Source of the DNA: a virus
Taxonomy: Duplodnaviria > Heunggongvirae > Uroviricota > Caudoviricetes
Reading direction: 5' to 3' (one strand)
IMG/VR virus record: IMGVR_UViG_2537562015_000009
Length of the DNA stretch: 23,248 nucleotides
The notes under the pieces are model-generated. The model saw only the letters and a list, made by a program, of their open reading frames with translations, had not been told where the DNA came from and made no database searches. Shown here in pieces: positions 11,976-12,700 of this stretch. Each line of letters starts with the position of its first letter. Positions within the stretch are counted from its first letter, which is position 1. The position numbers and the translations under genes were made by a program.

Positions 11976-12155
11976 ATGAGCTGCCCACTCAAAAAACACA
12001 CGCGGTTGAGTATTCCGCCTCGCGATAAAAGCGTTGTGGCAGTCCCTCGCCCAGCGATTGATGAAAACTGCGCACATCGTGAACAAGTGAAAAATGCTTT
12101 TGATTTCGGTTTTTCTCGTTATGAGAAAGCCATGGAAGAACTTTCAAAAGTGTAA
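11976..12155 (+). CDS. Putative antitoxin partner of the Doc-family toxin (59 aa, not Phd-like)
   Basis: ATG 11976 with AAAGGA RBS; stop TAA 12153-12155 lies 18 nt before the Doc ATG; small protein immediately upstream of the toxin. Confidence 0.45.
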   Translation: MSCPLKKHTRLSIPPRDKSVVAVPRPAIDENCAHREQVKNAFDFGFSRYEKAMEELSKV

Positions 12156-12173
12156 TGATGGGTATTGTGCTCT

Positions 12174-12659
12174 ATGGCTGAGATTGTTGAAGGAGTGCAT
12201 TACCTTACGGTTGATGATCTTGTTGAAATCAATCGTTCCCTAATTGAATTACAGACGCCAGATGAGCCCGTTGGTGTTCTGAGTCCAGATAACTTAAGTT
12301 CTTCTCAGGCCCGTCCCAGCATGGTTCGATGGTATGAACAGACTAATGACATGTTTGTACTGGCATCGGTATTGATTGAAAGTCTGATTCAGAATCATCC
12401 GTTTGCTAATGCGAACAAACGAACAGCTATGATGGCTGGTTACGTCTTCTTGTTGTTGAATGGCTATGAGTTAACAGCACCAGGCGATGAAATCGTGGAA
12501 ATGGCAGAGGGACTGGCCTGCAAAACCTATACTCGAGAAGATCTCGAGAACTGGTTGTGTTATTGGTCTCGCGCGTATGACAGCCGGGAATTATGTAAAA
12601 CAGGCGCAACTATTGTTTTGTATGAAACTATCAAGCTTAAAATAGAACAGCAAAACTAA
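12174..12659 (+). CDS. Doc (death-on-curing) / Fic-family toxin
   Basis: Motif HPFANANKRTAMMAGYVFLLLNGYEL matches the Doc signature HxFx(D/N)(A/G)NKR (P1 Doc HIFNDANKRTAL); 161 aa from the ATG, or TTG at 12165. Confidence 0.75.
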   Translation: MAEIVEGVHYLTVDDLVEINRSLIELQTPDEPVGVLSPDNLSSSQARPSMVRWYEQTNDMFVLASVLIESLIQNHPFANANKRTAMMAGYVFLLLNGYELTAPGDEIVEMAEGLACKTYTREDLENWLCYWSRAYDSRELCKTGATIVLYETIKLKIEQQN

Positions 12660-12673
12660 AGGTGCTTCCAATG

Positions 12674-12700
12674 AAAACCCGCTTCGGCGGGTTTTGTTTT
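12674..12700 (+). terminator. Intrinsic terminator after Doc gene
   Basis: AAAACCCGC-TTCG-GCGGGTTTTGTTTTTT; hairpin core identical to the hok terminator. Confidence 0.6.

Follow-up and report, generated by a model that had tools for sequence, protein, structure and literature searches.

A small gene and doc lie side by side in a lambdoid prophage

We analysed a 23,248-nucleotide (nt) stretch of viral DNA (IMG/VR record IMGVR_UViG_2537562015_000009), referred to below in its full length as the window. The window is a lambdoid prophage adjoining ompW in Escherichia coli of the enterotoxigenic type, and it matched strain 2014EL-1346-6 at 100% identity. Our subject is a pair of adjacent genes in this prophage, a short open reading frame (ORF) for a protein of 59 amino acids (aa) and doc, encoding a 161-aa protein of the Doc family, which together may constitute a toxin-antitoxin module. 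An earlier interpretation made from the letters alone (the sequence-only reading) had called two ORFs of these lengths 18 nt apart, and both proved to be real at those coordinates.

11976..12155, + strand: small ORF, 59 aa (MSCPLKKHTRLSIPPRDKSVVAVPRPAIDENCAHREQVKNAFDFGFSRYEKAMEELSKV), putative antitoxin; ATG at 11976, TAA at 12153-12155; WP_001277774.1
12174..12659, + strand: doc, 161-aa Doc (Fic-fold kinase family) toxin by profile matches; ATG at 12174, TAA at 12657-12659; WP_000818167.1

In RefSeq the 161-aa gene is already named as a Doc toxin and WP_001277774.1 is labelled 'hypothetical protein'; a literature search with both RefSeq accessions found no paper. The sequence AAGGA lies 9 nt 5' of the small-ORF ATG. 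Homologues of both proteins begin at the same methionines (MSxALKK... for the small protein, MAEIVEG... for the toxin), which supports the start codons of both ORFs and the calls of the Prokaryotic Genome Annotation Pipeline. The gap between the genes spans 12156-12173, and both ORFs share one frame, with TAA TGA and four codons between them.

The downstream gene encodes a Doc toxin with an intact catalytic motif

The downstream protein matched Doc or Fic profiles in three collections, all at scores well beyond chance level. NCBIfam TIGR01550 (DOC_P1) matched with 128.5 bits against a cutoff of 38.65, aligning residues 11-130 to model positions 2-122 of 122; Pfam Fic (PF02661) matched with E=6.6e-12 (46.6 bits versus 24), and PHROG 577 ('Doc-like toxin') with E=1.8e-51. 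The nearest solved chains were Enterococcus faecalis Doc (9VZC; E=4.7e-13, residues 6-116) and P1 Doc (3K33; E=5.6e-5). The Doc signature noted in the sequence-only reading, HPFANANKRTA, lies within the profile-aligned region at residues 75-85, where it aligns with HIFNDANKRTA of P1 Doc (3K33) and with the motif of E. faecalis Doc. Nine of its positions (H75, F77, A78, N79, N81, K82, R83, T84, and A85) are invariant in 28 members of the subfamily.

12396..12428, + strand: catalytic motif H75-P-F-A-N-A-N-K-R-T-A85, of the form HxFx(D/N)(A/G)NKR, read from the sequence
12564..12596, + strand: conserved C-terminal extension, residues 131-141, WSRAYDSRELC, past the end of the TIGR01550 alignment at residue 130

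Relatives of the toxin fell into at least 240 clusters at 90% identity (E<=1e-10). The 120 clusters listed of these comprise proteins of 117-166 aa, mostly from Enterobacterales, and wherever the source gives a name it is death-on-curing, save for one 'hypothetical protein' and one 'bacteriophage maintenance protein'. By its sequence, the 161-aa protein is thus an ordinary Doc toxin whose identity was already known. A PADLOC search gave no meaningful defence-system match, the best being PDC-S23 (E=0.002, 15.6 bits) over the Fic motif region.

The earlier suggestion that the toxin exceeds P1 Doc in length at its N terminus was mostly wrong. Residues 50-115 align to residues 41-105 of the 126 in P1 Doc, leaving about 9 extra residues at the N terminus and about 25-31 at the C terminus. 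Much of the C-terminal surplus is accounted for by a subfamily-specific extension with the consensus WSRxYDSRxLC, in which W131, R133, D136, L140, and C141 are invariant; behind it, residues 142-161 form a hypervariable tail.

The upstream gene encodes a conserved small protein of an undescribed family

The 59-aa protein gave no match in Pfam or NCBIfam (E<=1) or in the PDB, and its only match, covering it from end to end, was to PHROG 2208 (E=6.9e-41), a family of 'unknown function'. A profile of the partner family, searched against 1.84 billion representative proteins, recovered 38 clusters at 50% identity (E<1e-3), nearly all of 47-60 aa and sharing two motifs. Between genera, the proportion of synonymous differences (pS) was 0.44-0.98 (saturated) and that of nonsynonymous differences (pN) 0.04-0.26, with dN/dS of 0.05-0.18. 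The small ORF is under strong purifying selection and is a real protein-coding gene. We conclude that it belongs to an unnamed family of 47-60 aa proteins that corresponds to no described family, and this family, with its N-terminal motif, is the new part of the finding.

12003..12029, + strand: N-terminal linear motif R10-L-S-I-P-P-R-D-K18, consensus (R/K)LxIPxRDK, in the half predicted to be disordered
12075..12146, + strand: predicted amphipathic C-terminal helix, residues 34-57 (QVKNAFDFGFSRYEKAMEELS), from the AlphaFold model; putative Doc-neutralising element

In the family, (R/K)LxIPxRDK is followed by A(R/K)P, and the C-terminal block is conserved as QVxNAFxxxFxRYxKAhxxLSKV. Across 29 divergent members A41 and L56 are invariant, and conservation is 90% or higher at I13, P14, R16, and Y49; in close relatives of the 59-aa protein R16, D17, and K18 do not vary at all. 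The AlphaFold model had a mean pLDDT (predicted local distance difference test) of 78 and contained a single long helix spanning residues 34-57; from residue 41 to residue 59 the pLDDT was 91-94. The first 33 residues formed no strand and just a 3-residue helical turn.

Two apparent leads were discarded. A match of the partner family to ribosomal protein S25 in a PDB profile search was attributed to chance (E=0.2-0.9), and the idea that S12-I-P mimics the H-T-P of EF-Tu as a pseudo-substrate was dropped, since relatives have S, T, N, Y, H, L, or V at position 12.

The two genes are linked and diverge together

The small gene lies 5' of this Doc subfamily in eight enterobacterial genera. A doc gene follows it immediately in Salmonella, Serratia, Providencia (four loci), Morganella, Rosenbergiella, and Kluyvera, and is found 3' of two distant members of the partner family as well (45-54% identity). 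The temperate Pseudomonas phages Sirocco and LPPA56 also carry the pair, adjoining the integrase. Among IMG/VR viral contigs doc was directly 3' of the small gene in 80 of 80 cases, with gaps of 7-19 nt, and the same order was found in all 13 diverse loci that were compared, with gaps of 2-18 nt. Over these 13 loci the pairwise identities of partner and Doc co-vary (r=0.90). In total, the partner was linked to Doc in 93 of the 97 loci examined. As judged from gene order and divergence, linkage of this kind typifies antitoxin-toxin pairs of type II.

Orthologues in Providencia, Morganella, and Pseudomonas phages (L007, L008, L010, L011, L020, and L021) have a 3-nt spacer between stop and start, again in the same frame. 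Short, in-frame spacers of this kind suggest tight translational coupling between the small ORF and doc. No natural read-through fusion of the two was found among the 120 listed Doc homologues.

At one distant locus (L017, 705-1920), another Fic-domain protein, longer at 242 aa, comes immediately after the partner-Doc pair.

The partner is not a Phd protein, and its helix matches the register of Phd

The sequence-only reading had stated that the small protein shows no resemblance to Phd. At the level of family and fold this held. Neither PF02604 nor any other antitoxin domain was detected by Pfam at E<=1 in the 59-aa protein and 28 relatives, and AbrB/MazE, ribbon-helix-helix (RHH), and Panacea domains were likewise missing from Pfam and NCBIfam searches at E<=1. 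The fold prediction that had been proposed as a check showed no Phd/YefM, AbrB, or RHH fold in the AlphaFold model. When the partner family was aligned with P1-type Phd by hhalign, using a P1 Phd sequence checked against PDB 3HRY/3K33, the probability was 0.7% over 8 columns; the stretch in question, FSRYEKAM against FEAYKKAA, was not accepted as homology. On the sequence profiles and the predicted model, the partner is non-Phd in both respects.

The C-terminal helix is the part of the protein to which the earlier statement does not extend, as it shares the register of the C-terminal toxin-binding segment of Phd (Phd-C). An alanine scan of Salmonella Phd52-73 defined hot spots at F56, I59, M60, H63, L67, and L70, with F56 and L70 as 'gatekeepers' (PMC9207808). 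Counted back from the C terminus, hydrophobic residues lie at the following distances.

Partner family: 0, 3, 6, 10, 13, 17, 21
P1 Phd: 2, 3, 10, 13, 14, 17, 21
Salmonella Phd: 3, 6, 11, 13, 14, 17, 21
E. faecalis Phd (hand count, peptides of PMC13034048): 2, 3, 6, 7, 17, 18, 21

The 59-aa protein has a hydrophobic residue (F42, F46, Y49, M53, and L56) at five of the six hot-spot positions, and L56 stands three residues from the end of the partner, as L70 does in the 73-aa Phd. A match of at least five positions occurred at one offset only (p=0.005 by permutation of the last 26 residues). Such a match would be expected if the partner helix docked in the Phd groove of the toxin, and it need not imply homology.

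Comparison with known Doc and Fic modules

One close parallel is Phd-Doc of P1 (3K33, 3DD7), with which the module shares a TIGR01550 toxin, the HxFx(D/N)(A/G)NKR motif, an antitoxin gene placed upstream, and carriage by a phage. In the terminal amphipathic helix of the partner, hydrophobic residues lie as far from the C terminus as L52, F56, F60, L63, and L70 do in P1 Phd. The differences lie in the partner, which at 59 aa instead of 73 lacks the N-terminal Phd/YefM DNA-binding domain and has (R/K)LxIPxRDK in its place; in the toxin, which is 35 aa longer than P1 Doc, mostly at the C terminus with its WSRxYDSRxLC extension; and in the host element, an integrated lambdoid prophage here and a plasmid prophage in P1.

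By sequence, the closest solved Doc is that of E. faecalis Phd-Doc (9VZC). E. faecalis Phd contacts the toxin on its concave face through a C-terminal helix, residues 52-79 (PMC13034048), and a hand count puts hydrophobic residues of this helix 3, 6, 17, and 21 places from the C terminus, as in the 59-aa protein. That antitoxin also has a beta-sheet DNA-binding N-terminal domain and dimerises the toxin, for which no equivalent could be detected in the 59-aa protein.

Doc toxins with other kinds of antitoxin have precedents. In Corynebacterium doosanense PanA(Phd-C)-Doc, Phd-C is fused to a Panacea domain, which shows that the element can move between antitoxin scaffolds, and Phd-C alone, as a SUMO fusion, neutralises that Doc; antitoxins that consist of the neutralisation element alone also exist (PMC10440598). 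Unlike PanA, the protein described here has no Panacea (DUF4065) or other globular domain, and its helix is preceded only by a segment of about 33 residues predicted to be disordered. In TasA-TasB, a MazE-Doc composite, Doc is likewise paired with a non-Phd antitoxin (PMC1626090), but TasA has a DNA-binding domain of the AbrB/MazE type, and none was detected in the 59-aa protein. A non-Phd partner of Doc is therefore not new in principle, since MazE-Doc and Panacea-Doc pairs are known.

The partner also resembles the antitoxins of VbhT-VbhA and FicT-FicA, which are small, largely helical, devoid of a DNA-binding domain, and encoded upstream of a Fic-fold toxin. In VbhA and FicA, an inhibitory helix with the motif (S/T)xxxE(G/N) blocks adenylylation. 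This motif is absent from the 59-aa protein, in which the nearest sequence, S47-R-Y-E50, has the wrong spacing, and the toxin has the NKR motif of Doc kinases instead of the GNGR motif of AMPylases.

The small protein as a probable minimal antitoxin

We consider it likely that the pair is a two-gene type II toxin-antitoxin moron, consisting of a Doc kinase and a minimal antitoxin with a Phd-C-like helix. We infer that the Doc protein would be toxic, phosphorylating EF-Tu and so arresting translation by analogy with P1 Doc, and that the 59-aa protein, encoded upstream on what would be the same transcript and probably translationally coupled to doc, would bind the toxin directly and neutralise it. 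The strict linkage of its gene to doc, and the joint divergence of the two, make an antitoxin role for the small protein probable in its own right. The proposed binding mode is put at slightly better than an even chance: the helix of residues 34-57 would occupy the groove of Doc in the manner of the C-terminal Phd-C helix of Phd. The N-terminal half, predicted to be disordered, bears (R/K)LxIPxRDK. Biologically, the module could serve in prophage addiction or in phage exclusion. The sequence-only reading had suggested an alternative antitoxin family; synteny and co-divergence support the role it gave to the small protein, for which the description of a minimal antitoxin, probably working in the Phd-C mode, seems to fit better than that of an unrelated solution.

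Several observations weigh against this interpretation. The likeness to Phd-C consists of the register match only, with nothing found by HMMER against the PDB or by hhalign against Phd, and a spacing of i/i+3/i+4/i+7 is generic to amphipathic helices. One hot-spot position, that of Phd I59, is occupied by G45. A minimal antitoxin of this kind assigns no function to the conserved N-terminal motif, and four divergent partner homologues lie in phage contigs in which a tblastn search, with Salmonella locus L002 as positive control, found no Doc. The AlphaFold model of the toxin, made with 28 close relatives, had a pLDDT of 52 and showed six helices and two short, low-confidence strands; the Fic/Doc fold is taken from sequence profiles because this model was too poor for a fold search. 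Palindromes upstream of the small gene, considered further below, are absent from the Pseudomonas phages and individually marginal elsewhere. The main anomaly compared to textbook systems is that type II autoregulation is left unexplained, as the partner has no recognisable DNA-binding domain.

The first alternative keeps the small protein as an antitoxin but gives it a mode other than that of Phd-C. The N-terminal (R/K)LxIPxRDK could sit in the active site or on the EF-Tu-binding surface, or it could clamp WSRxYDSRxLC, leaving the helix for anchoring or dimerisation only. In its favour, conservation of the N-terminal motif equals that of the helix (at least 90% at I13, P14, and R16), although Phd-C offers nothing comparable to this motif. 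The Doc subfamily found with the partner family carries an invariant C-terminal extension of its own, and the partner shows no significant similarity to Phd in sequence. Modes of Doc neutralisation do vary, since E. faecalis Phd acts by inducing dimerisation of the toxin and leaves the catalytic motif uncovered (PMC13034048). Against these points, the hydrophobic register of the helix, when anchored at the C terminus, falls on the hot spots of Phd, the helix is the sole confidently structured element of the protein, and nothing ties the N-terminal motif to Doc. We regard this alternative as unlikely.

It is less likely still that the small protein is no antitoxin at all, but a co-transcribed regulator, chaperone, or adaptor, with a Doc that is non-toxic in its host or otherwise controlled, for example by an RNA. 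The lack of a recognised antitoxin domain and the four phage contigs with family members but no Doc would agree with such a role. The arrangement, however, is the canonical one for type II systems, with an upstream gene of 47-60 aa, a gap of 2-19 nt, co-divergence, and linkage in 93 of 97 loci. Moreover, the catalytic motif of Doc is intact and invariant, and therefore an unneutralised copy should be deleterious, and the insert holds no Rfam RNA above the gathering score and, by the ORF list of the window, no other conserved ORF. The matches to rsmX, RydC, isrK, and istR that Rfam gave below threshold all fell on terminator hairpins, and an RNA antitoxin was discarded as a candidate.

The small protein might instead descend from a Phd/YefM protein by truncation, as a pseudogene-like remnant without the former N-terminal domain. 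The C-terminal register shared with Phd-C would agree with this, but it is very improbable given that the full 59 aa, N-terminal motif included, are conserved under purifying selection across Enterobacterales and Pseudomonas phages and in 38 clusters, and that no residual PF02604 signal was found in 29 members (hhalign, 0.7%); whole-length conservation without such a signal therefore points to a stable family of its own, whatever the origin of the helix.

If the small protein is a minimal antitoxin, naming its family as such would correct calls of 'orphan Doc toxin' in surveys of toxin-antitoxin systems. The protein would provide a natural example of an antitoxin cut down to little beyond its neutralising helix, and so bears on the model of antitoxin evolution in which a linear neutralisation element is joined to an exchangeable domain. 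It also raises the question of how the operon could be regulated without a DNA-binding antitoxin. The finding extends the known Doc system and does not overturn its current understanding.

Family members without doc

The four partner homologues without doc lie in phage-like metagenome contigs.

L005, 859-1041; L016, 1036-1194; L018, 2100-2249; L019, 277-642: partner homologues without doc

The L005 copy follows a tail-fibre gene, is 63% identical to the 59-aa protein, and has a nearly identical helix. The L016 copy follows a replication initiator, and those of L018 and L019 lie inside arrays of overlapping small genes; the L019 homologue, at 121 aa, has an extra N-terminal region. Two of these contigs end less than 200 nt from the small gene, and the adjacent ORF is not Doc-like in either. 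The four contigs indicate that the partner family is not exclusively tied to Doc. Their copies could be remnants, or they could be orphan antitoxins for counter-defence, a role that we consider unlikely and for which DarG-like orphan antitoxins in T4-like phages provide a precedent (PMC11825919). As such, the copies without doc offer a lead toward phage counter-defence.

A broader proposal, which we rate as doubtful, is that the PHROG 2208 family is a portable anti-Doc module. In prophages it would be the cognate antitoxin; alone, it would allow phages to disarm Doc-based abortive-infection defences of the host. The motif (R/K)LxIPxRDK would then be a second functional element, either Doc-inhibiting or a degron or regulatory element, with no counterpart in Phd.

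The pair was inserted as a precise 847-bp cassette

The sequence-only reading had placed the module between hok/sok and a DUF968 gene, bounded by terminators, and had likened it to the cargo of the Qin prophage. Both the placement and the analogy were borne out. On the 5' side lie sok (11435-11610, 121.6 bits in Rfam) and hokD (11605-11760, RefSeq), and on the 3' side the DUF968 gene (13049-14098), RusA, and Q (RefSeq). The hairpin sequence AACCCGCTTCGGCGGGTTTT occurs on both sides of the pair, at 11829 and 12676, as an exact 20/20 match with a spacing of 847 nt.

11829..11848, + strand: left 20-bp direct repeat, AACCCGCTTCGGCGGGTTTT; terminator hairpin of hok, forming the left junction of the insert
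11849..12695, + strand: inserted cassette (moron), 847 bp, comprising a leader, the small ORF, doc, and a terminator of its own formed by the right copy of the repeat
12674..12702, + strand: intrinsic terminator 3' of doc, holding the right repeat copy (12676-12695) and a T-run; 9-bp stem, then GTTTTTT

Many E. coli prophages have hokD, a single terminator, and DUF968 without exactly this 847-bp stretch. In strain FDAARGOS_1304, a 1,901-nt query covered just 1,054 nt. At this empty site (locus L022) there is one copy of the repeat and exactly 847 bp are missing, with flanks matching the window junctions at 59 of 60 positions on the left and 57 of 60 on the right. Among complete E. coli genomes the cassette was present in 124 of 5,426 (about 2%). 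The GC content of the insert is 42.4%, versus 49-50% in the 3-kb flanks. With its presence/absence polymorphism, precise boundaries, deviant GC content, and own terminator, the cassette is a moron.

A hairpin and T-run of their own also lie within a few nt of the stop in orthologous modules of Serratia, Morganella, Rosenbergiella, Providencia, and Kluyvera, and the terminator of the Morganella module (AACCCGCTCAGGCGGGTT) is nearly identical in sequence. Because orthologous cassettes end in similar terminator hairpins, recombination between such hairpins is a plausible route by which the cassette, bringing its own terminator, would have been inserted at the hok terminator. Terminator hairpins appear to serve as recombination joints in moron gain.

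RefSeq annotates a 63-aa 'hypothetical protein' at 12637-12828 on the minus strand, antisense over the doc stop codon and the terminator. It looks spurious, and it is restricted to cassette-bearing prophages because the ORF spans the insertion junction.

Candidate regulatory elements in the leader

The leader of the cassette contains a weak promoter candidate and a palindrome.

11865..11894, + strand: weak sigma-70 promoter candidate, TTGTAA-18-TATCCT, 8/12 matches in a relaxed scan
11918..11935, no strand assigned: palindrome TGCATCAAATTTGGTGCA, candidate operator or hairpin of the 5' untranslated region, 41 nt 5' of the small-ORF ATG

A standard promoter scan did not report TTGTAA-18-TATCCT, and the case for a promoter of the cassette's own is weak. 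At the equivalent place, Morganella and Providencia heimbachae have TTGACT-17-CATTAT, which overlaps the palindrome TAATGAAA-n6-TTTCATTA. Salmonella has the palindrome TGCACTAAtTTAGTGCA at the same position as TGCATCAAATTTGGTGCA of E. coli, with both arms changed. When compared to shuffled sequences, the upstream palindromes reached p<0.05 in 6 of 12 loci, and that of the window gave p=0.24. Folding of the 5' leader RNAs of eight genera gave z-scores of -0.4 to -1.7, with no support for a conserved structure.

The palindromes are genus-specific and lie 25-80 nt 5' of the small ORF (window, 11896-11935; L008, about 1538-1566; L011, about 2717-2745).

Other genes noticed in the prophage and in Salmonella

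In the same prophage, a 'toxin YdaT family protein' gene (about 7002-7427, RefSeq) follows a cro-like gene in the immunity region and is, with hok/sok and doc, the third toxin-type gene of the prophage. Directly 3' of Q, at about 15301-16805, the identical RefSeq locus has a gene pair for a Ser/Thr protein kinase and a PP2C phosphatase, a probable further moron. A DNA methyltransferase gene, followed by three tRNA genes (Ile, Lys, and Gly), precedes the lysis region at about 17373-18781 in the same annotation. In a Salmonella prophage (L002, 3496-6009), the small-ORF/Doc pair sits within a toxin-antitoxin cluster, with hok/gef on one side and ParD-ParE and VapB-PIN directly on the other.

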